Position numbers and translations under genes: made by a program. This document shows positions 31,563-64,000 of a stretch of 64,000 bases of DNA, in pieces. Source of the DNA: an uncultured Bacilli bacterium (lineage in GTDB: Bacteria; Bacillota_I; Bacilli_A; RFN20; CAG-631); assembly GCA_947626825.1 (NCBI GenBank), contig CANQTM010000001.1, forward strand, positions 32,568-96,567, written 5' to 3'. The notes beneath the pieces were generated by a model. The model made no database searches. It was not told the origin of the DNA and saw only the letters and a list, made by a program, of their open reading frames with translations. Within the stretch, counting starts at the first letter, position 1. Every line of letters begins with the position of its first letter.

Positions 31563-33170
31563 ATGAAATATGTTTTTGTTACAGGCGGTGTTGTTTCAGG
31601 ATTAGGAAAAGGTATTGTAGCAGCTTCTTTAGGAAGATTACTAAAATGTAGAGGATTAAAAGTTGCAGCCCAAAAATTTGATCCTTATATGAATATTGAT
31701 CCTGGAACTATGAATCCAATTCAACATGGTGAAGTTTATGTAACTGAAGATGGCGCAGAAACAGATTTAGATTTAGGCCACTATGAAAGATTTATTGATG
31801 AAAATTTGACAAAATATTCAAACCTTACTAGCGGTAAGGTATTTTGGAAAGTTCTTAATAAAGAAAGGAATGGTGAATATGATGGACAAACAGTACAAAT
31901 TATTCCCCATGTTACAAACGAAATCAAACGATTTATTAAGAAAAATGCTGATTTAACACAAGCAGATGTTATGATTACTGAAATTGGTGGTACTATTGGT
32001 GATATTGAAAGTCAACCATTTTTAGAAGCAATTAGACAATTTTCTATTGAAGTTGGTCGTAAAAATTGTTTATTTATCCATGTATGTTTAGTACCATTTA
32101 TTGCTGGATCATATGAATTTAAATCAAAGCCAACACAACATTCAGTAAAAGAATTACAATCAAATGGTATTAATCCTGATATTATTATTACAAGATCTGA
32201 AACTGATTGTGGTGAAAAAATTCGTCAAAAAATAGCATTATTTTGCAATGTGGAAGAAGATTGTGTTATTCAAAATTCAACTGCTAAATGTTTATATGAA
32301 GTACCTTTGATGCTTCATAAAAATGGTTTAGATAAAGTTGTTTGTCGCAAATTTGGATTTAGAAAAAAATGTGATTTAACTATTTGGAAAGAAATGGTTA
32401 AGTCAATACATAGTAGAAAAAATAAAGTAACTATTGCCTTGGTTGGAAAATATGTTACTTTACATGATTCATATTTATCAATTATTGAGGCATTAAATCA
32501 TGCTTCATATGCTAATCATGTAAATGTTGAAATCAAATGGATTGATAGCGAAAAAGTAAAAAAATCAACTATTAAAAGCCTTTTTAAAGATGTTTATGGA
32601 ATTATAGTTCCTGGAGGATTTGGCAATAGAGGTATTGAAGGAATGGTTTTAACATGTCAATATGCAAGAGAAAAAAATATACCTTATTTTGGTATTTGTT
32701 TGGGCATGCAAGTTGCTGTTATTGAATATGCAAGAAATGTCGCAAAAATATCTGATGCCACTAGTGGTGAATTTTCAAATAATGGCAGTAAAGTTATTGA
32801 TATAATGGAAGATAAAAAAGGTAAAATTATTGGTGGAACAATGCGACTTGGTGCATATCCTTGTAAAATTAAAGATGATAGCATTATGCAAAGAGCATAC
32901 AATCAAGAACTTGTTGAAGAAAGACATAGACATCGTTATGAATTTAATAATGAATATAGAAAAATTTTAGTAGACAAAGGACTTTTTATTAGTGGAACAT
33001 CACCTGATAATAAAATTGTTGAAACTATAGAAGTAAAAGAAAACAAATTTTTTATTGGTGTTCAATTCCATCCAGAATTTAAAAGTAGACCTAATGCAGT
33101 TCATCCATTATTTTATCATTTTGTTAAATGCTCAATTGAAAAAATGGTAGGTGAGAATGTTGAAAAGTAA
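31563..33170 (+). CDS. pyrG: CTP synthase
   Basis: MKYVFVTGGVVSGLGKGI N-terminus. GATase domain GICLGMQ. Confidence 0.9.
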   Translation: MKYVFVTGGVVSGLGKGIVAASLGRLLKCRGLKVAAQKFDPYMNIDPGTMNPIQHGEVYVTEDGAETDLDLGHYERFIDENLTKYSNLTSGKVFWKVLNKERNGEYDGQTVQIIPHVTNEIKRFIKKNADLTQADVMITEIGGTIGDIESQPFLEAIRQFSIEVGRKNCLFIHVCLVPFIAGSYEFKSKPTQHSVKELQSNGINPDIIITRSETDCGEKIRQKIALFCNVEEDCVIQNSTAKCLYEVPLMLHKNGLDKVVCRKFGFRKKCDLTIWKEMVKSIHSRKNKVTIALVGKYVTLHDSYLSIIEALNHASYANHVNVEIKWIDSEKVKKSTIKSLFKDVYGIIVPGGFGNRGIEGMVLTCQYAREKNIPYFGICLGMQVAVIEYARNVAKISDATSGEFSNNGSKVIDIMEDKKGKIIGGTMRLGAYPCKIKDDSIMQRAYNQELVEERHRHRYEFNNEYRKILVDKGLFISGTSPDNKIVETIEVKENKFFIGVQFHPEFKSRPNAVHPLFYHFVKCSIEKMVGENVEK

Positions 33171-56924: not shown

Positions 56925-57964
56925 GATTTTTTCTTCTTCTTTCCTTCATTACTTTCATCAATATCACCAACTAAACGTTCTAAAACATCTTCCATTGTAA
57001 TAATTCCAACAGTTTTATCTTTGTTATCTTTAACAATAGCCATATGTGTTTTCTTTCTTTTAAATTTCATAAAAACTGTTTTTATTTCAGAAGCTGGTGT
57101 AGTAAAAATAGGCTTAACCAACATGTCTTCTAAGTTATATTGTTCATTTGACATTAATACTTTAAGTAATTTTTGCAAATGTAAAATACCAATTATGTTA
57201 TCTATATTTCCTTTATATACAGGAATTCTTGTATATGGATTATCTAAAACATAATCAATTAATTGTTCTCTATTTAAGTTTAAATCAATATTATATGCTA
57301 CTATTTTATTTTTTGGGCACATAACATTTTTAACTCTAATACTTTTAAAATCAACAGCTGATTGAATAATTTGCTTTTCTTGTTCTTCAATTAAACCTTC
57401 TTGTTGAATATTTCCAACAATTTGTTGAAAATCTTCTTCATCAATTAAAGGATCTTCTTTTTTTGCTTTAAATATTTTTTTTAATAATCCTATCAAACCA
57501 CTAAATAATAAAGAAATAGGTGTTAAAATCCAAGCTAAAGCAAAAATTGGGTAAACAATAATTTTAACTATAAAATTAGCAAATGTTTTACCAATATTTT
57601 TAGGAATTATTTCACCAAAAAAGAATACTATTAATGTTGAAAAAATAATAGCAAATAAAGAACCTACTTCTTCTCTTGACATATTTTGAAAAAAAGTAGT
57701 ATTTTGCACTAAATTTGTGCATAAAATTGTGGCTAAAATAGAAATTAAAATATTAACAATATTGTTGCCAATTAAATTGGTAATAATATATTTATCAAAA
57801 TTATTTAAGCATCTAACTACAAGTTTAGAACTTTTTTTCCCATCATCTGCTTCAACTCTTAATTTTATTTGATCACAATATGAAAAAGCACTCTCACTCA
57901 TTGAAAAAAAAGCCGAAAGAAATAAAAGTATAACCAATAGTATAGATCTGGTCAGGCTCGACAT
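56921..57964 (-). CDS. CNNM-family protein (DUF21 + CBS pair), tandem paralog lacking the CorC_HlyC tail
   Basis: Same architecture minus the C-terminal domain. Overlaps its downstream neighbour by 4 nt. Confidence 0.7.
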   Translation of the reverse strand: MSSLTRSILLVILLFLSAFFSMSESAFSYCDQIKLRVEADDGKKSSKLVVRCLNNFDKYIITNLIGNNIVNILISILATILCTNLVQNTTFFQNMSREEVGSLFAIIFSTLIVFFFGEIIPKNIGKTFANFIVKIIVYPIFALAWILTPISLLFSGLIGLLKKIFKAKKEDPLIDEEDFQQIVGNIQQEGLIEEQEKQIIQSAVDFKSIRVKNVMCPKNKIVAYNIDLNLNREQLIDYVLDNPYTRIPVYKGNIDNIIGILHLQKLLKVLMSNEQYNLEDMLVKPIFTTPASEIKTVFMKFKRKKTHMAIVKDNKDKTVGIITMEDVLERLVGDIDESNEGKKKKKS

Positions 57965-58008
57965 AAAAGCTCATCACACTCCAAAGCATATTAATTGCAT
58001 ATATATAA

Positions 58009-58599
58009 TTATAACAAGAAAAATTGAGTTTTCAATGTTTTTATATTTTTAAGTCCTTCATAAATAAAATTGCTAATTAAATAAATAAACCCACTAAATT
58101 CTATAATTGCAAAGATAACATATAAAATAATTCCAAAAATTAAACCAAGACATAATGAACTATAACTTCCTTTATAAAAAATTAATATGCTTATAGCAAA
58201 AAGCAAATATTTTCCAATAAAAGATACTAATAAAATAGTAAAAATTAGTAACTTTTTACTTAAAAAGTTCCAATTTATGAAAATAAACTTTAAACATAAT
58301 AAAATAGCAAAAAATATTAAAAATAATATAGGAGCTATATTTAAATTATTGAAAAAGGCACCAATGACATTCATAACGACTTGAAAATTAACAAATTCAG
58401 TTTGCCCTATTTCATGATATATTTGACCTACAATGCCATTATTTAAAATTGTATCTAATTCGTTTTCACTTAAACTATAACATTTAAATAAAGGAAGCAT
58501 TGCAATTAAATCTTTTATAATAAAAATTCCTGCCAAAAAAGCCAAAATAAATAGGCCAAAATTAATTATAAATTCGCATAATTTTTGATTTTTTGACAT
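58009..58599 (-). CDS. Hypothetical polytopic membrane protein
   Basis: About five TM helices. No motif recognised. Confidence 0.4.
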   Translation of the reverse strand: MSKNQKLCEFIINFGLFILAFLAGIFIIKDLIAMLPLFKCYSLSENELDTILNNGIVGQIYHEIGQTEFVNFQVVMNVIGAFFNNLNIAPILFLIFFAILLCLKFIFINWNFLSKKLLIFTILLVSFIGKYLLFAISILIFYKGSYSSLCLGLIFGIILYVIFAIIEFSGFIYLISNFIYEGLKNIKTLKTQFFLL

Positions 58600-58747
58600 T
58601 TAAATCACCAATAAATATTATAACTTTAAAATATTTGAAAGAAAACACTTTTCTATAATATTTAAAAATATTATTGAAAATCGCTTGCGTTTTGTGTTAT
58701 TATATTTAAGCGTATGTAGTATTTGTTTTTTTAGGAGGTATTACGTA

Positions 58748-59551
58748 ATGAAAAAAATTAAGGCATTTTTTGCTAGAGTTGGTAATTATATTAAAAATAC
58801 AGCTTGGATTCAACCTTTGTTGATTGTTATAGTTATTTTCGTTCTTTTATTTTCTTTAGCACCAATTACTGGTTGTACTAAATCATTTTGGGCTAGAGTA
58901 ACAACAGTTAATAAAATGGATAAAATTTCTTATAAAGAATATATTGAAAAAATTAAAGGTTCAAAAGAAGATGATAAATTTATCATTGTCTTTACTCAAG
59001 AAAATTGTGATGTTTGCCCTATGTTCTATAAAAATATGAATGATTATTTAAAAAATGATTATGGCAAAAAAGCACAAGATTTTGAAATTTTTAATGTTGA
59101 TTTGTCAACTAAATCTAGCAAAGTAAAAATTAATGGTTCAAAATATCAAGTTTATAAAGATAAGACATTAGGATTAGTTTCTCCTACAAGTTATGCAAGC
59201 AATGAAATTATTGCCCAAGATTATGCTAAAAAACTTGATGAAAGAATTAAAACATTCAATGAAAGAGCTTTTGATGGTGCTAATAGCAGTGAATTAGAAC
59301 CTGTAAGTGAAAGTGCTTATACATATTTATCAACTCCATTAGTTATTTGGTATGAAGGTGGTTTAGAAACTAGAATTTCAAATAAATATGATTCTCTTGA
59401 AAAACAATCAGATAACAAAAAAGTTAAAACAACTGAATTTAAAAAGTACATTGAAAACTTTGAAGGTGAAACTAAAGCTGAATGGAATGATGAATTTGAT
59501 TTAACATTCAGTGAATATAAAAACATTAAGGATGCATTTGAAGAGCACTAA
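58748..59551 (+). CDS. Membrane-anchored thioredoxin-like CxxC protein
   Basis: AGGAGGT RBS. N-terminal TM helix. Thioredoxin-fold-like FIIVFTQENCDVCPMF. Confidence 0.55.
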   Translation: MKKIKAFFARVGNYIKNTAWIQPLLIVIVIFVLLFSLAPITGCTKSFWARVTTVNKMDKISYKEYIEKIKGSKEDDKFIIVFTQENCDVCPMFYKNMNDYLKNDYGKKAQDFEIFNVDLSTKSSKVKINGSKYQVYKDKTLGLVSPTSYASNEIIAQDYAKKLDERIKTFNERAFDGANSSELEPVSESAYTYLSTPLVIWYEGGLETRISNKYDSLEKQSDNKKVKTTEFKKYIENFEGETKAEWNDEFDLTFSEYKNIKDAFEEH

Positions 59552-59566
59552 TTAAAGTGCTTTTTT
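59543..59566 (+). terminator. Hairpin plus T run between the two thioredoxin-like paralogs
   Basis: agcact-aattaa-agtgct followed by T6. Confidence 0.4.
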
Positions 59567-59573
59567 CTTAAAA

Positions 59574-60230
59574 ATGAAAAAAGGATTTCTCCTTTCAATT
59601 ATTTTATTAGCAAGTTTTGTTAGTTGCGCTAATGAAAATGATTTGGCATTAAAAACTATCACCTACAAAGAATATATAAATAAAGTTTCTAATGAAGTTG
59701 AAAATGATAGAGATATATTTATTTTTACGACATCAACTTGCACACATTGTCAAAAAATTAGACCACTTTTAAATAAATATGTTGCTTTAAATCCAGATGT
59801 TAATATTTTTGAATTATCTTTAGATGTTAAAATTTCTACTTTTGGTGATAATACATATATATTTAAAGATAGTTCAATGGGATATTTCACTGGTGATGCA
59901 AAAGATGATTGTATAAAATCATTGGATAATCGTATTGCTTTATATGCTAATGCAAATAATTTAGAAAATAATTCTAGTACTAATGCTTTATATTCTCCAA
60001 TCGATATTGAAGGAAATAGCAAATATATGTATGTTTATACTCCATTAATTATTTTTTATGAAAGTGGTTTAGAAGTAAATATTATTAATAATGTTGAAAG
60101 TTTATTAACATATGATAAAAAAAATAAAATTGAATATGATTCATTTGCTAAAATATTTGAATTTCCAACAGAAAAAAATCAATGGGATAAACCATTTGAT
60201 TTAACTTATTCAACTGCTTTTACTCTTTAA
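59574..60230 (+). CDS. Thioredoxin-like CxxC lipoprotein (paralog of the preceding gene)
   Basis: Lipobox LASFVSC. IFIFTTSTCTHCQKI motif. Shares C-terminal blocks (PL[VI]I[WF]YE.GLE and FDLT[FY]S) with the upstream paralog. Confidence 0.55.
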   Translation: MKKGFLLSIILLASFVSCANENDLALKTITYKEYINKVSNEVENDRDIFIFTTSTCTHCQKIRPLLNKYVALNPDVNIFELSLDVKISTFGDNTYIFKDSSMGYFTGDAKDDCIKSLDNRIALYANANNLENNSSTNALYSPIDIEGNSKYMYVYTPLIIFYESGLEVNIINNVESLLTYDKKNKIEYDSFAKIFEFPTEKNQWDKPFDLTYSTAFTL

Positions 60231-60258
60231 TGTCTACTTTGTGTAGACATTTTTTTTA
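60230..60258. terminator. Bidirectional rho-independent terminator
   Basis: atgtctac-tttg-gtagacat followed by T8. Confidence 0.6.
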
Positions 60259-60265
60259 TAAAAAA

Positions 60266-60876
60266 GTGATAAATAATCACTTAACGATTATATAAATCTA
60301 TATCAATACCGCATTTAGGAGGCAAACTATCACTAAGATTCCAAAACGTTTTATCAAATGTAGCGTTAATTTTTGTATAAGTTTGTGATTCATTGAATGG
60401 AAAATAAATAATCATTTCGTCTTCAAATTCAGGTATATCATAATAACTAATTGGAAAGACGCCCTCAGACCAAGATTGCATATATTCACCATTTGCAAAA
60501 ATATGATCAACACCACGAATATATGCTATAACTAAATTATAATTACAGTTTTCAGATTCAGATAAGTTGTTAATTAATTTTATTTCAAATCCTTTACTAT
60601 TAATAGATATAAACTCTACATCATAAGAAAAATCATATTCAAGATAATCATATTCACTATTGTTGACTTCCCATCTATCTCCAGGTGAATATTTTATAAC
60701 TTTTTCACCATTTGAACATGATATAAGAGGAATAGTCAAAGAAAGAATCATTATTTTTTTTAACATCTTCATTTCCTCCTTTGTTGTCATCATTATATCA
60801 TATTAAATGTTTATTGACAATTTATACAATTCACGATATTGTTAAAAAAATTAACCTGCAATATATGGAATTGTCC
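60266..60876. repeat. ~611 bp duplicated segment, copy A (~85-90% identical to 62704..63317)
   Basis: Carries the lipoprotein gene, its TTGTCA-17-TGATATAAT promoter and RBS, and a remnant of the 3' end of an upstream gene. Confidence 0.9.
60281..60772 (-). CDS. Secreted lipoprotein of unknown function, copy A
   Basis: AAGGAGGAA RBS lies within the annotated MMTTKEE, so the true start is MKMLKK. Lipobox LISC. Confidence 0.6.
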   Translation of the reverse strand: MKMLKKIMILSLTIPLISCSNGEKVIKYSPGDRWEVNNSEYDYLEYDFSYDVEFISINSKGFEIKLINNLSESENCNYNLVIAYIRGVDHIFANGEYMQSWSEGVFPISYYDIPEFEDEMIIYFPFNESQTYTKINATFDKTFWNLSDSLPPKCGIDIDLYNR

Positions 60877-61052
60877 ATTTAGATTTTCTTAGTTAATTTA
60901 GATTTGGTGTCATTTATTTGCCATTTTCTCAATTAATTTTTTTAGTAGAAAATCTAATTTTTTAAATTATATATATATTGTCAAATTGATTTATATATTC
61001 ATATTTTGCAAATGTAAGGAATGTAAAACAAATTTAAAAATTATAATTAGCA

Positions 61053-61355
61053 TTAAATTTGCTCATCGCTAGTACTACTTTTTTTAAATATTTGTTTAAT
61101 AATTTGATTTGCACCTGTAGAACTTGCACCACTTACAATTCCAACACCTAATGCAAACCATACATTATCTGCATTTAATATCATTTTAGGAGCAGTAAAA
61201 TAAATTAAAACACCCAATATGCCCCCAATAACTGCAACTAATATTGGAATCAATTTGTATGCTTCTTGCTTCTTTTTAAATAAAATCTTGTAAATTTCTC
61301 CTATGATATAGCAACATACAACTATAATAGGAACACATGTAAAATTCATCATCAA
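61053..61355 (-). CDS. Phage-type holin (phiLC3/A118 Hol-like, class with GxxxG-rich second TM helix)
   Basis: Three hydrophobic helices. LIPILVAVIGGILGVL...VGIVSGASSTGANQIIKQIFKK resembles the A118/phiLC3 holin family, recalled from memory. Confidence 0.45.
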   Translation of the reverse strand: MMMNFTCVPIIVVCCYIIGEIYKILFKKKQEAYKLIPILVAVIGGILGVLIYFTAPKMILNADNVWFALGVGIVSGASSTGANQIIKQIFKKSSTSDEQI

Positions 61356-61400
61356 TTAACCTCCTTCTTAAAATGAATTTTTAGTAATTTAAAATTTTAA

Positions 61401-61706
61401 TTATGTATTATCTAGTTTATACATGTCATCAACTCGTTTCGTAACATTAACTACTGACTCTTCAACTTTTGCAAGACGCTCAGCAATATTACGATCACGC
61501 TCATCTACTTTATTTAAGTTTTTTTCAACTCGATCTACACATGCTTTGATATAACCAATATCTGAAAACATCACCCCTTCTGTTTTACCATCAGTTCTTT
61601 GTTCTTGCTTATCGCTTCTTTTAAATGCTAAATAAGCAAATACAATACTTGAAATAGATGCAAAGAAACCTACTAAAATAACAATTAATTCAAAAGTCAT
61701 AACCAT
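61401..61706 (-). CDS. BhlA/UviB-like holin-like protein (N-terminal TM helix + charged coiled-coil tail)
   Basis: Architecture match: a TM helix at residues 4-27 followed by a Lys/Glu/Asp/Arg-rich helix. Confidence 0.4.
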   Translation of the reverse strand: MVMTFELIVILVGFFASISSIVFAYLAFKRSDKQEQRTDGKTEGVMFSDIGYIKACVDRVEKNLNKVDERDRNIAERLAKVEESVVNVTKRVDDMYKLDNT

Positions 61707-61865
61707 CAGCTCCTTAATCTTTTTGTTAAGAAATTTATTTCTTCATAAATAAGGAAACGAAAAGTTCAAAAGTACATGGTTTATTTTTAACTTTTTATTT
61801 TAATAAATAACATTAAAACAAAAAAATGTTAACGCCTTTTGGGCATTAACACTTTTAAAAAATTA

Positions 61866-62684
61866 TTAAAATATTTTATATGTTTTTGTTATATCATGTG
61901 ATTCGATGAAATCATTATATTCCACAATATCACAAGATCTATGAAATGCATTTAAAATTATTGATGCTATGTATTTTTTACTTTCATTTATTGTTTTAAA
62001 TGAAATAGGATTGTTAAATAATACCACGAGATCTACGTCGCTATTTTTGTGATATTCATTTTTATACATAGAACCAAACAAGAACATTGATTTAATTTCT
62101 TTTTCTACTAATTCATCTTTTTTACTTTGAAGTAAATTTATTATTTCTTCTTTTAAATTATGGTTATTTTCATTATTATTGATAAATAATGTATTAAAAT
62201 AACTATATAAAAAATATATACGAGAATTAACATTTTTTATTGTTTGATAAACTTCATACAAATTTGCTGGTGGTACACACGGATAATTGTATTGTCTTGT
62301 CAAATATATAGTCAATAGTAGAAAAAACAAATAACTTTCAGATGATGCCATTTCTTTAAATTTTATTAGATATCTATCTAACCATTCAAACACACGAATT
62401 CCTGGTTTTATTCTTTCAATTATTAAGTCAAGATTTACAATCTTCTTGTCATATATCATTTCAAAACATCTTTTATATTCTAATTCATTAGAATTAATTG
62501 GTAATGAATATATCATTTGGAACAATTTAAAATAATTTAATATTTCCTGATTAAAATTTGTATCGTTATTTTGTATTCTAAAAGTAATTTTCTTTATATC
62601 ATCGTATTTATGAACACCATAATAATTGTCATAAAATGATGATATTACTTTGCAAGGAAACGTTGAAGTATATGTTGTATCCAT
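61866..62684 (-). CDS. Protein with a C-terminal minimal nucleotidyltransferase (Pol-beta superfamily) domain and an N-terminal uncharacterised helical domain
   Basis: FLFGSMYKNEYHKNSDVDLVVLF fits the GS-x(9-13)-DhD NTase motif. Confidence 0.5.
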   Translation of the reverse strand: MDTTYTSTFPCKVISSFYDNYYGVHKYDDIKKITFRIQNNDTNFNQEILNYFKLFQMIYSLPINSNELEYKRCFEMIYDKKIVNLDLIIERIKPGIRVFEWLDRYLIKFKEMASSESYLFFLLLTIYLTRQYNYPCVPPANLYEVYQTIKNVNSRIYFLYSYFNTLFINNNENNHNLKEEIINLLQSKKDELVEKEIKSMFLFGSMYKNEYHKNSDVDLVVLFNNPISFKTINESKKYIASIILNAFHRSCDIVEYNDFIESHDITKTYKIF

Positions 62685-62703
62685 TTTTACTCCAAAAAAA
62701 TAA

Positions 62704-63317
62704 GTTATAAAATAATCACTTAATGATCGTATAAATCTATATCAATACCGCATTTAGGAGGCTCACTATCACTAGGATTCCAAAACAAATTATCAAATGT
62801 AGCGTTAATTTTTGTATAAGTTTGTGATTCATTGAATGGAAAATAAATAATCATTTCGTCTTCAAATTCAGGTATATCATAGTTGGGTCTTGGAAAGATC
62901 ATGCCTTCAGTATGAAATTGTATAAATTCACCATTGGCAAAAATATAATCCACTTCACGAATAGATGCTATAACTAAATTATAATTACAGTTTTCAGATT
63001 CAGATAAGTTGTTAATTAATTTTATTTCAAATCCTTCACTATCAATAGATATAAATTCTACATCATAAGAAAAATCATATTCAAGATCATCATATTCACT
63101 ATTGTTGACTTCCCACCTATCTCCAGGTGAATGTTTTATAACTTCTTTACCATTTGAACACGATATAAGAGAAATAGTCAAAGAAAGAATCATTATTTTT
63201 TTTAACATCTTCATTTCCTCCTTCGTTGTCATCATTATATCATATTAAATGTTTATTGACAATTTATACAATTCACGATATTGTTAAAAAAATTTACCTG
63301 CAATATATGAAATTGTT
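62704..63317. repeat. ~614 bp duplicated segment, copy B
   Basis: See copy A. Confidence 0.9.
62720..63214 (-). CDS. Secreted lipoprotein of unknown function, copy B
   Basis: Same promoter, RBS and signal peptide as copy A. Mature part ~85% identical. Confidence 0.6.
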   Translation of the reverse strand: MKMLKKIMILSLTISLISCSNGKEVIKHSPGDRWEVNNSEYDDLEYDFSYDVEFISIDSEGFEIKLINNLSESENCNYNLVIASIREVDYIFANGEFIQFHTEGMIFPRPNYDIPEFEDEMIIYFPFNESQTYTKINATFDNLFWNPSDSEPPKCGIDIDLYDH

Positions 63318-64000
63318 TCATTACACTTTATAACATTTCCATGACTATAATTACTTTTATAAACATTATAATATTGAGCATTATTAGGATCCTCTATTGC
63401 CTCATCATAAATACCATTTATAATGTCGTTCATAATAGGATAGTTTGTTAATTCGAATTCCATTTTGTCATTATGAATCCATGAATCTATCAAATCTTCT
63501 AATACTTGCAAACCAGTAACTAATAAAGCAGATTCTAAGTTGAAAGATGGCAAGCAACAATTTTTATAACAAGTTTTATATGTTCCATATTGGTAATAAC
63601 AATTTCCGCACATAAATTGTTTTGAGTTATAACATTCTAAGGACCTATCTGTTATACCAACAATTTTAGCGTTTTCAATATCGGTTTGTTCACCAATTGA
63701 AACTAATCCATCAAATGGATATTTATAAATACTATTTGGAATATATACACCATTATAATCACAATAACCAGGAATTACCTTGAACAAATGTCCTGAAACA
63801 CTTGAAATTACTGTTAAGTTAGGTCTATTTGATAATTTATTCCATCGTCCTTTAACATCATCGAAATAATCAGATTTAGCTAAGATCTCAACACATTCCT
63901 TATATTTTTTGGCAGTTCCTGGTTTGTCTTGAATTACTTCATACAAATCTGTTCCAAAAATTTTTGTAAGTACATTTACATTGATTAATTTTTTTGCCAA
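63284..64000 (-). CDS. Cys-rich hypothetical protein, N-terminally truncated by window end
   Basis: Open frame runs to nt 64000. Cys cluster CYNSKQFMCGNCYYQYGTYKTCYKNCC. Its last eight codons are duplicated upstream of lipoprotein copy A. Confidence 0.4.
   Translation of the reverse strand: MAKKLINVNVLTKIFGTDLYEVIQDKPGTAKKYKECVEILAKSDYFDDVKGRWNKLSNRPNLTVISSVSGHLFKVIPGYCDYNGVYIPNSIYKYPFDGLVSIGEQTDIENAKIVGITDRSLECYNSKQFMCGNCYYQYGTYKTCYKNCCLPSFNLESALLVTGLQVLEDLIDSWIHNDKMEFELTNYPIMNDIINGIYDEAIEDPNNAQYYNVYKSNYSHGNVIKCNETISYIAGKFF

Follow-up and report, generated by a model that had tools for sequence, protein, structure and literature searches.

What is the function of a gene cluster that combines a cysteine-rich open reading frame (ORF), two related lipoprotein genes and a phage-type holin gene in the chromosome of an uncultured bacterium? 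The cluster lies at the end of a 64,000-nt stretch of DNA (the window) that covers positions 32,568–96,567 of the forward strand of contig CANQTM010000001.1 (assembly GCA_947626825.1), from an uncultured Bacilli bacterium (GTDB lineage Bacteria; Bacillota_I; Bacilli_A; RFN20; CAG-631). An initial annotation, a model's reading of the letters and an ORF list without database searches, grouped positions 58685–64000 into one locus for a small, disulfide-rich secreted effector that is folded by thioredoxin-like (Trx-like) proteins, released by holins and neutralized by surface lipoproteins. Every ORF that it listed is present where it was placed. The analysis described here leads to a different reading, to which we give an even chance of being right: positions 60260 to beyond 64000 would form a chromosomal competition island, in which a lipase-like toxin from an undescribed protein family is paired with an immunity lipoprotein, also from an undescribed family, and is released with the help of a holin.

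Which protein does the cysteine-rich ORF encode? The cysteine string reported for it, CYNSKQFMCGNCYYQYGTYKTCYKNCC, is present, and the ORF starts at a TTG at the window edge, with ~183 N-terminal residues outside the window. Those residues were recovered from contig L047, which was located through a match to the nucleotidyltransferase (NTase) protein of the window, is 99.2% identical to window positions 59619–64000, and runs 1,581 nt past position 64000. The intact gene in L047 encodes a protein of 421 amino acids (aa), and its last 237 residues are identical to the window ORF. A word-indexed search with the ORF finds a single homologue (P0001, 267 aa, 71% identity); an exhaustive HMMER search with P0001 finds 54 relatives among 1.84 billion proteins, most of them ~400–420 aa long, with P0001 aligning to residues ~156–420 of the full-length relatives. 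The latter start with MSS..IVLFQGGLGD, and a classical nucleophile elbow is found in them as LVGHSQGGLVNLE (LVGHSQGG). Without exception, the 36 family sequences compared have Ser152 (read from L047, since it lies outside the window), Asp280 and His403, which form a triad in the canonical order. The window part of the gene includes the catalytic Asp (FDGLV), the catalytic His (YSH) and a four-cysteine site, and the GHSQGG elbow lies beyond it. The family has both the G-x-S-x-G elbow with a Ser-Asp-His triad and the three-dimensional core fold of alpha/beta-hydrolases of the lipase/esterase type, the AlphaFold2 (AF2) model having a pLDDT of 92.1 and a pTM of 0.91. A full-length family alignment is needed for this result; folding the 267-aa fragment with one close homologue gives a pLDDT of 37. 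Strand 1 of the model begins at residue 11, so there is no space for a signal peptide, and the catalytic His lies ~18 residues from the C-terminus, so no extra C-terminal domain fits. The hydrolase is a single globular enzyme, variable along its whole length, without an N-terminal trafficking domain. The proposal of a small disulfide-rich effector thus gives way to the C-terminal part of a 421-aa hydrolase. The initial annotation had itself named the C-terminal part of a cytoplasmic enzyme as a finding that would speak against it, and this is partly what was found.

How does this enzyme relate to known lipases? Its nearest structures are Firmicute surface hydrolases and family I lipases, the latter indicated both by Foldseek and by a sequence profile search of the PDB, and in sequence it comes closest to family I.2 lipases. 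Alignment with family I.1/I.2 lipases is limited to 55 residues around the elbow (E = 1e-4), and the comparison with family I lipases gives a TM score of 0.36 and 12–14% identity. Classification as a family I.1/I.2 true lipase was rejected because there is no full-length homology, no signal peptide and no Lif foldase gene downstream. In total, ~210 of 423 residues are alignable to any known hydrolase. Pfam gives Tle3 at 13.6–18.8 bits against a cut-off of 27 (E = 1.3e-3 to 0.05), and PGAP1, DUF676 and Abhydrolase at borderline scores around the elbow. NCBIfam, PADLOC and PHROGs give no match for the hydrolase, and the BFVD viral fold library gives generic lipase-like folds only. A scan of 185,579 species genomes with a 14-sequence alignment finds 3 true relatives, labelled “Bacilli bacterium,” “Anaeroplasmataceae bacterium” and “bacterium”; the other 34 matches extend over ~60 residues and are to generic GHSQGG lipases from phyla that include Proteobacteria and Actinobacteria. 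A metagenome scan adds 3 further loci, and no relatives were found on viral contigs in IMG/VR. The family is rare, and its members come solely from uncultured gut bacteria of low GC content.

What, then, are the cysteines for? Six lie within 27 residues, and four of the six are conserved in the family (C306, C317, C327 and C331 in L047 numbering). The third conserved position is His in 5 of the 36 sequences and the fourth is His in 3, and two family members lack all four cysteines together. Histidine cannot form a disulfide. The Cys/His interchange and the all-or-none loss therefore fit a structural metal site better than disulfides, and the pattern points to a metal site in a loop where the confidence of the AF2 model is lowest. 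Together with the missing signal peptide, this pattern would argue against a disulfide-rich secreted effector.

Some copies of the hydrolase gene are split. At L001:9915–9922, and also in L002–L005, a run of eight A residues divides the gene into ORFs of 140 aa and 267 aa; the intact allele of L052 has seven A residues at this site, and removing one A from the run of eight joins both ORFs perfectly. An alternative code or recoding was rejected for the split ORFs in L001, since they lie in different frames and the removal of one A restores the gene. The split gene would be either a pseudogene or a phase-variable toxin. The frameshift is also an annotation trap, in that the resulting 267-aa “orphan” has no detectable family.

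What accompanies the hydrolase? A lipobox protein follows it in 11 loci, lies upstream of it in L009, and was not found in L046, so that the “cognate surface lipoprotein” of the initial annotation stands in outline. An NTase protein of ~270 aa follows the lipoprotein in all loci with enough sequence, giving a trio in the order hydrolase, lipoprotein (111–171 aa), NTase. The lipoproteins match no family in Pfam (DUF576 included) or NCBIfam scans, and none in PADLOC or PHROGs. They have the highest ratio of nonsynonymous to synonymous substitution rates (dN/dS) at the locus, 0.39–0.42, and 0.59 between the two copies in the window; the hydrolase is intermediate (0.28–0.33) and the XhlA-like gene described below is lowest (0.06). 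The two lipoprotein copies, which had been recognized before, belong to a direct duplication of ~620 nt (60260–60874 versus 62697–63316) with 92% DNA identity and 85% protein identity. The duplicated unit begins 30 nt ahead of the stop codon of the cysteine-rich ORF. The “toxin 3' remnant” claimed for the orphan copy is real and is merely 33 nt long, consisting of the last 10 codons and stop of the upstream ORF, interrupted by a TAA. Both copies are preceded by TTGTCA-17-TGnTATAAT and an AAGGAGG ribosome binding site (RBS), and the proposal that duplication generates orphan immunity genes holds in outline, the orphan copy having kept its own promoter-like site and RBS. In L047, from a 99%-identical strain, the downstream lipoprotein copy (L047:4789–5304) is a chimera of the copy 2 body and the copy 1 C-terminus, which indicates ongoing gene conversion between the copies.

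How does the cassette vary between loci? In L001, L052, L053 and L008, the gene order is a divergent AAA_23–MC2–CTD6 group, a sigma-like gene, the hydrolase, the lipoprotein, NTase272 (272 aa), an XhlA-like gene, the holin, NTase280, NTase279, and an RHS/YD gene. The window lineage (the window and L047) likewise has the trio with the sigma-like gene and the holin pair, and it is the only one of these loci without the RHS gene; the L053 contig ends before the holin, with the RHS gene beyond it. The RHS/YD protein, which is encoded downstream of the holin in the sister loci, is >2,400 aa long, has no signal peptide, and fits the architecture of a conserved N-terminal trafficking/filament region with a variable C-terminal toxin. 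Degenerate NTase280 sequence after the holin stop shows that the window lineage has lost the NTase280–NTase279–RHS module, and the duplicated lipoprotein unit occupies the site of the loss. This arrangement is common to at least 10 assemblies and is therefore not a misassembly. Relative to the window lineage, the proteins of L001, L052 and L053 are 77–82% (sigma-like), 72–76% (hydrolase), 59–63% (lipoprotein), 76–80% (NTase272) and 90–94% (XhlA-like) identical, and the holins of L001 and L052 are 80–83% identical (the L053 contig ends earlier); the RHS protein of L052 is 96% identical to that of L001 (the L053 contig does not reach it). Divergence among these three loci is fairly even across genes. 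The corresponding values for L008 are 80% for the sigma-like protein, 36–40% for the hydrolase, a lipoprotein undetectable by BLAST, 28% for NTase272, 94% for the XhlA-like protein and 86% for the holin, with an RHS protein 81% identical to that of L001. Judging from these identities, the L008 trio was replaced as one unit, with the flanks on either side conserved. Two hallmarks of polymorphic toxin systems in the sense of Zhang et al. 2012 (PMC3482391) are present: a variable toxin with a tightly linked immunity gene that differs between close strains, as in the L008 swap, and orphan immunity cassettes formed by recombination, as in the orphan lipoprotein copy and the L047 gene conversion. 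A third, a conserved N-terminal trafficking domain fused to a variable toxin tip, is absent from the hydrolase. L008 also has an extra, unrelated gene for a 142-aa lipoprotein between the NTase and XhlA-like genes (L008:10236–10664).

The trio is found in other settings as well. L006 and L044 have it on short contigs, L007 between rplQ and ecfA, and L045 and L054 among housekeeping genes. In L051, it stands in a mobile-element-like context beside Amidoligase_2, GGACT, DUF6329 and DUF3846 genes, which follow it at L051:2809–6689, and this gene set suggests that a conjugative or other mobile element is one vehicle for the cassette.

What might the third member of the trio do? The NTase-domain protein had been identified correctly in the initial annotation and given no role. 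Its domain matches Pfam Polbeta (4.7e-11) and NTP_transf_2 (2.9e-10), and the GS...DxD...D motif in its C-terminal 90 residues is invariant across the family. The nearest known protein is the antitoxin MntA (PDB 5YEP, 2.5e-6; NCBIfam NF047752, 3.4e-8, with 33.3 bits against a cut-off of 60), and there is a match to the PADLOC candidate PDC-S09 (2.9e-13). The N-terminal 170 residues have no PDB profile match and, by eye, no HEPN Rx4-6H motif. Assignment as an MntA-type (type VII toxin–antitoxin) antitoxin was rejected, since the score is below the family cut-off and no HEPN gene is present. The likeness to MntA/HepT lies in the C-terminal 90 residues, which form the same minimal core with the motif intact; unlike MntA/HepT, NTase272 lacks a HEPN partner, has an additional N-terminal domain of 170 aa, and stands next to a hydrolase, not an RNase. 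By analogy with MntA, NTase272 may neutralize a partner protein by nucleotidylylation. A conserved partnership of an NTase with a lipase-like toxin was not found in the libraries or literature searched. Immediately upstream of the RHS gene are the genes of two further NTase paralogues, of 280 and 279 aa (L001:13072–14753; L008:11436–13180), which suggests that NTase-domain proteins accompany toxins in general, not just the hydrolase.

How could a protein without a signal peptide leave the cell? The predicted holin is indeed one, scoring 48.9 bits against Pfam Phage_holin_5_2 (gathering cut-off 29.2; E = 8e-13) and matching the holin family PHROG 1129 (3.8e-13); this membership places it in the Hol44 family, which Pfam assigns to holin superfamily V. 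Its neighbour had been called BhlA-like. No Pfam BhlA match was found at E <= 0.1; the protein instead matches Pfam XhlA weakly (15.4 bits against a cut-off of 34.7; E = 0.02) and phrog_1863 at 5.7e-17, and in phages of Clostridium perfringens and Bacillus cereus its homologues are encoded after the tail genes and directly upstream of the holin–endolysin genes, the place of XhlA in a lysis cassette. Judging from these matches, the pair is derived from a phage lysis cassette. No endolysin accompanies it at the locus, and no phage structural, replication or integration genes were found within 10 kb in L001, L008, L047, L052 and L053. A prophage was rejected as an explanation because no phage genes are contiguous with the holin and the hydrolase has no relatives in IMG/VR; past position 64000, where the initial annotation had allowed for one, lie the rest of the hydrolase gene, a regulator gene with sigma region 4, the conflict system and housekeeping genes.

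The link between the holin pair and the hydrolase is a 41-nt element, ACCRTGTACTTTT-N5-TTTHGWYTCCTTATTTATGAAGA, which has one match in the 64-kb window, with 0 expected by chance. Each complete locus (L001, L004, L008, L047 and L052) has exactly two copies. One lies 5–6 nt past the sigma-like gene, ahead of the hydrolase gene and beyond the window, and the other lies ~35–60 nt upstream of the XhlA-like gene. Because they share this element, the hydrolase operon and the XhlA–holin operon appear to be co-regulated, and the earlier link between holin and effector is upheld in outline by a phage-derived holin pair that has the unique element of the effector operon. The sigma-region-4 protein could act on the element. 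This regulator is 155–166 aa long, with Sigma70_r4_2 and r4 matches at residues 97–150 of 155; sigma region 2 gives no match, and the NCBIfam sigma70-ECF alignment covers just the C-terminal two-thirds.

How would the parts work together? The signal-less 421-aa hydrolase would be a toxin that attacks membrane lipids, and the fast-evolving surface lipoprotein would be its cognate immunity protein, binding the hydrolase outside the membrane. More speculatively, the cytoplasmic NTase protein may keep the hydrolase harmless in the producer or otherwise modify it. The regulator would switch on toxin synthesis and the XhlA/holin genes, probably in a subpopulation of cells; since both units carry the 41-nt element, synthesis and permeabilization would be switched on together. 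Permeabilization or lysis by the holin would then release the hydrolase and, in sister strains, the signal-less RHS toxin too. In the window lineage, the RHS module has been deleted and the lipoprotein gene duplicated with its promoter, giving a diverging orphan copy of immunity type. Toxicity, immunity, export route and the role of the NTase are all read here from sequence. The features of the island within the window are listed in Table 1.

Table 1. Features of the proposed island in the window (positions count from the first letter of the 64,000-nt stretch)
Feature	Position	Strand	Remarks
Terminator-like hairpin	60229..60251	+	Between the island and the convergent Trx-like gene; island boundary
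Lipoprotein copy 1 (orphan)	60281..60793	-	Differs from copy 2 in two patches
Promoter-like site, copy 1	60792..60820	-	Duplicated version of the copy 2 site
Hydrolase 3' remnant	60842..60874	-	Marks the start of the duplicated unit
NTase280 5' remnant	60963..61052	-	~90-110 nt, degenerate; deletion scar
Holin	61053..61355	-	Phage_holin_5_2 / Hol44 family
XhlA-like protein	61401..61706	-	Membrane/coiled-coil protein; first gene of phage lysis cassettes
41-nt element	61740..61780	-	
Intrinsic-terminator-like hairpin	61822..61856	-	Closes the hydrolase-lipoprotein-NTase unit; separates the two units
NTase272	61866..62684	-	170-aa N-terminal domain and C-terminal MntA-like minimal NTase
Lipoprotein copy 2 (cognate)	62720..63235	-	Lipobox LISC; likely start 63214/63208 after the AAGGAGG RBS
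Sigma-70-like promoter, copy 2	63234..63262	-	11/12; consensus match only
Hydrolase, C-terminal 238 codons	63284..64000	-	Part of the 421-aa lipase-like alpha/beta-hydrolase

Where does the island end, and what lies beside it? Window positions 58009–60230 are a conserved core block that encodes a membrane protein of 196 aa and two extracytoplasmic CxxC paralogues, beside two CNNM/CBS/CorC genes; its counterparts are L055:4043–6258 and L056:1100–2541. A C-terminal extension is common to both CxxC proteins, whose motifs are CDVC and CTHC, and a lipobox is present in the one of 218 aa. The CxxC motifs are as the initial annotation had described them; the thioredoxin-like character is less secure, the thioredoxin-type models being matched below threshold only (Thioredoxin 1.3e-3, 19.2 bits versus 23.5; TrbB 1.3e-5; PedC/BrcD 7e-3), and a homologue, P0067, matches Thioredoxin_2 weakly. 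The 218-aa lipoprotein has three homologues among 5.8 billion proteins. L055 and L056 match the left flank of the window (the RNase-J side, a 113-aa ORF, the two CNNM/CBS/CorC genes, the membrane protein gene and both Trx-like genes) and continue after the Trx-like genes with SpoU methylase, YebC and PFOR genes, with no lipoprotein, holin, NTase or hydrolase. BLAST finds no homologue of the Trx-like or membrane proteins within 10 kb of the trio in L001 and L006–L009. On this gene order, the Trx-like genes and the membrane protein gene are core-genome neighbours, not members of the island. The grouping of all these genes into a single locus is therefore not confirmed, and a dedicated Trx system for folding the effector was rejected on the same grounds.

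On the other side of the cassette, every sister locus has a conflict system divergent from the sigma-like gene and beside it, consisting of a 599-aa AAA_23-type ATPase with MC2 and CTD6 (L001:5332–8558, L052:586–3737, L053:2342–5568 and L008:3377–6603), and L047 shows homology to this region at its left end. Window positions 1–55000 are ordinary chromosome with ~25% G+C and the standard code, including genes for DnaB, HolA, ComEC, an ABC-F protein, PyrG, TldD/PmbA, a Wzc-like tyrosine kinase, IF-2, NusA, AckA, RimO and NrnA. No peptidoglycan-synthesis genes are among the 20 large window ORFs that were annotated, the identifiable ones being all housekeeping genes, and Rfam gives no match in window positions 57900–64000.

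How well does a lipase toxin with a lipoprotein immunity protein and holin-assisted release withstand the alternatives? Several observations weigh against it. The likeness of the hydrolase to proven lipase toxins is a matter of shared fold only. Gene-wide dN/dS is below 1 for every gene, and linkage alone could account for the way in which hydrolase, lipoprotein and NTase co-diverge (Spearman 0.76 and 0.87). The hydrolase gene is frameshifted in one lineage, in five independent assemblies, with the lipoprotein and NTase genes intact. In four independent contexts (L007, L045, L051 and L054), the trio has no holin, sigma-like gene or RHS gene nearby, so the holin is no general requirement. MNT-type NTases are typical of toxin–antitoxin and defence modules, and a conflict system is next door to the trio. 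The main rival, which we consider unlikely, is an intracellular conflict module for toxin–antitoxin activity, abortive infection or phage defence, in which the NTase senses infection or neutralizes an effector as MntA does, the hydrolase destroys the cell's own membrane from inside, and the holin pair and the AAA_23/MC2/CTD6 system are further suicide or defence genes of one defence island. A hydrolase that has no signal peptide and stands beside an NTase domain nearest to MntA and PDC-S09 suits such a module, whereas an obligatory extracytoplasmic lipoprotein that is the fastest-evolving protein, and has been duplicated as an orphan with its own promoter, does not. Similarly, the stand-alone, holin-less trios in varied contexts, one of them mobile-element-like, and the adjacent conflict system are as expected of defence genes; against this, neither the hydrolase nor the lipoprotein is matched by anything in PADLOC, viral contigs yielded no relatives, and the locus is contiguous, and apparently co-regulated, with an RHS polymorphic toxin.

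A second rival gives the enzyme a metabolic task, and we think it quite improbable. The hydrolase would be a physiological lipase or esterase that scavenges host or dietary lipids, with the lipoprotein as anchor or foldase, the NTase as regulator, and the nearby holin an accident of island structure. Such an enzyme would suit a low-GC, Mollicute-related gut bacterium; yet it would not be expected to be as rare as 54 representatives in 1.84 billion proteins and 3 in 185,579 species genomes. In fold, the hydrolase is nearest to ordinary secreted lipases and to “cell-surface hydrolases” of Firmicutes, family I.2 lipases are closest in sequence, and one Foldseek hit (PDB 2es4) is such a lipase bound to its specific foldase, but the hydrolase has no signal peptide and the lipoproteins are short (111–171 aa) and match no Pfam or NCBIfam family. 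The trio does stand among housekeeping genes in L007, L045 and L054; the swap of a cassette between conserved flanks, the orphan lipoprotein, and a 41-nt element in common with the holin operon would be unexpected for a metabolic enzyme. By far the least probable account, in our view scarcely credible, is the original one of a small disulfide-rich secreted effector folded by the Trx-like proteins and the membrane protein of the same locus. Its appeal lies in the clustered cysteines and in two extracytoplasmic CxxC proteins within 4 kb, weakly like the disulfide isomerases PedC/BrcD and TrbB. Against it, the ORF belongs to a much larger enzyme, its four conserved cysteines are swapped for His or lost together, and the supposed folding genes sit beside CorC/CNNM genes in the island-free L055 and L056, with no homologue near the trio in the five loci searched.

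How does the proposed lipase toxin locus compare with known systems? The initial annotation had held that its composition is not that of a described class, and analogues do exist, in TslA/TilA (PMC10730906), TcdE (PMC3369941) and the type 10 secretion system, or T10SS (PMC10847048). TslA of Staphylococcus aureus is a polymorphic, signal-less phospholipase A toxin secreted through a type VII secretion system, the T7SS, with several non-identical genes for immunity lipoproteins (PMC10730906). By analogy, TslA/TilA is the functionally closest described case: it too pairs a signal-less lipase fold with an adjacent lipoprotein, differs between strains, and has non-identical lipoprotein copies. The differences are that, the alpha/beta-hydrolase fold apart, no sequence relationship to TslA/TilA can be detected; that the loci showed no LXG-like helical domain at the C-terminus, no TlaA-type partners and no T7SS genes; that the lipoproteins have no Pfam match (DUF576 included); and that an NTase and a holin pair are present instead. 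Membership of the TslA-type reverse-LXG T7SS toxins was rejected on the lack of an LXG-like domain, small helical partner genes or a DUF576 lipoprotein at the loci. The Tle lipase effectors of type VI secretion systems (T6SS) are GxSxG enzymes with periplasmic Tli immunity proteins encoded adjacent to them. They share with the loci here a GxSxG lipase with an extracytoplasmic immunity-type gene alongside; in contrast to Tle proteins, the hydrolase matches Tle3 below threshold and has different domain insertions, and the loci examined showed no T6SS genes.

For release, the closest parallels are loci with holins. Signal-less toxins are released in a holin-dependent manner from the C. difficile pathogenicity locus (PaLoc) with TcdR/TcdE (PMC3369941, PMC12485765), and P. 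sordellii TcsL represents a further clostridial holin–toxin locus (PMC8878733; holin-dependent toxin release is reviewed in PMC9527704). The loci here are like the clostridial ones in having a signal-less toxin, a phage-derived holin without a functional endolysin, a small sigma-type regulator, and a promoter-type element ahead of both the toxin and holin units. They are unlike them in that the regulator shows sigma region 4 alone, the holin family differs, the cargo is lipase-like (with RHS in sister loci) rather than a glucosylating toxin, and an XhlA-like partner and immunity-type lipoproteins are present. UviA/UviB–BCN5 of C. perfringens is another clostridial toxin locus with a regulator and a holin. 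Because region 4 alone was detected, the regulator was rejected as a TcdR/UviA group-5 sigma factor. In the T10SS of Yersinia entomophaga, a specialized subpopulation releases very large Tc toxins with a lysis cassette (PMC10847048). The sister loci are similar in having an RHS protein encoded directly downstream of the holin; unlike the T10SS, with its holin, endolysin and spanin in a diderm, they have no endolysin or spanin, and the host is related to Bacilli/Anaeroplasmataceae. Colicin-type operons, which are plasmid-borne, encode a toxin, an immunity protein whose gene has a constitutive promoter of its own, and a lysis protein induced along with the toxin. The loci here are like them in combining a signal-less toxin, an adjacent immunity-type gene behind a promoter-like site of its own and what is predicted to be a co-induced lysis function, and unlike them in being chromosomal, in having an XhlA/holin pair versus a lysis lipoprotein, and in encoding a proposed lipid-acting enzyme with no recognized receptor or translocation domains. 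The colicin comparison is discussed in a survey of polymorphic toxin systems (PMC3482391), in which Tox-ABhydrolase-1 to -3 occur as C-terminal tips of multidomain proteins, and which knew, among immunity proteins, only a single lipoprotein family and a single enzyme.

What would the locus mean for these bacteria and for toxin biology? If the proposed reading is true, there is an unannotated lipase-toxin family with its own family of immunity lipoproteins, neither of which has a dedicated Pfam or NCBIfam model. The 41-nt candidate control element makes the regulation directly testable. The conserved NTase partner would hint that self-protection is enzymatic and specific to a compartment; only recently was compartment-specific immunity reported for a different Gram-positive toxin (PMC12744356). 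The reading can be extended to a previously undescribed three-layer toxin system on a holin export chassis, an extension that we think improbable. In such a system, the MntA-like NTase would nucleotidylylate the lipase toxin and hold it inert in the producer's cytoplasm, with its variable N-terminal domain recognizing its own toxin allele; the surface lipoprotein would block the toxin from outside; and the sigma-region-4 regulator would fire the toxin and endolysin-less XhlA/holin operons through their shared 41-nt promoter element. One chassis for export and regulation would thereby serve interchangeable cargo, the lipase trio and the NTase–NTase–RHS modules. If true, the simpler reading would add a compact, apparently co-regulated form of holin-assisted release for signal-less toxins of antibacterial type (lipase and RHS), distinct from that of the large clostridial toxins and from the T10SS of Gram-negatives, and the three-layer system would amount to a PaLoc-like “holin export locus” by which Mollicute-related Bacilli of the gut release polymorphic toxins.

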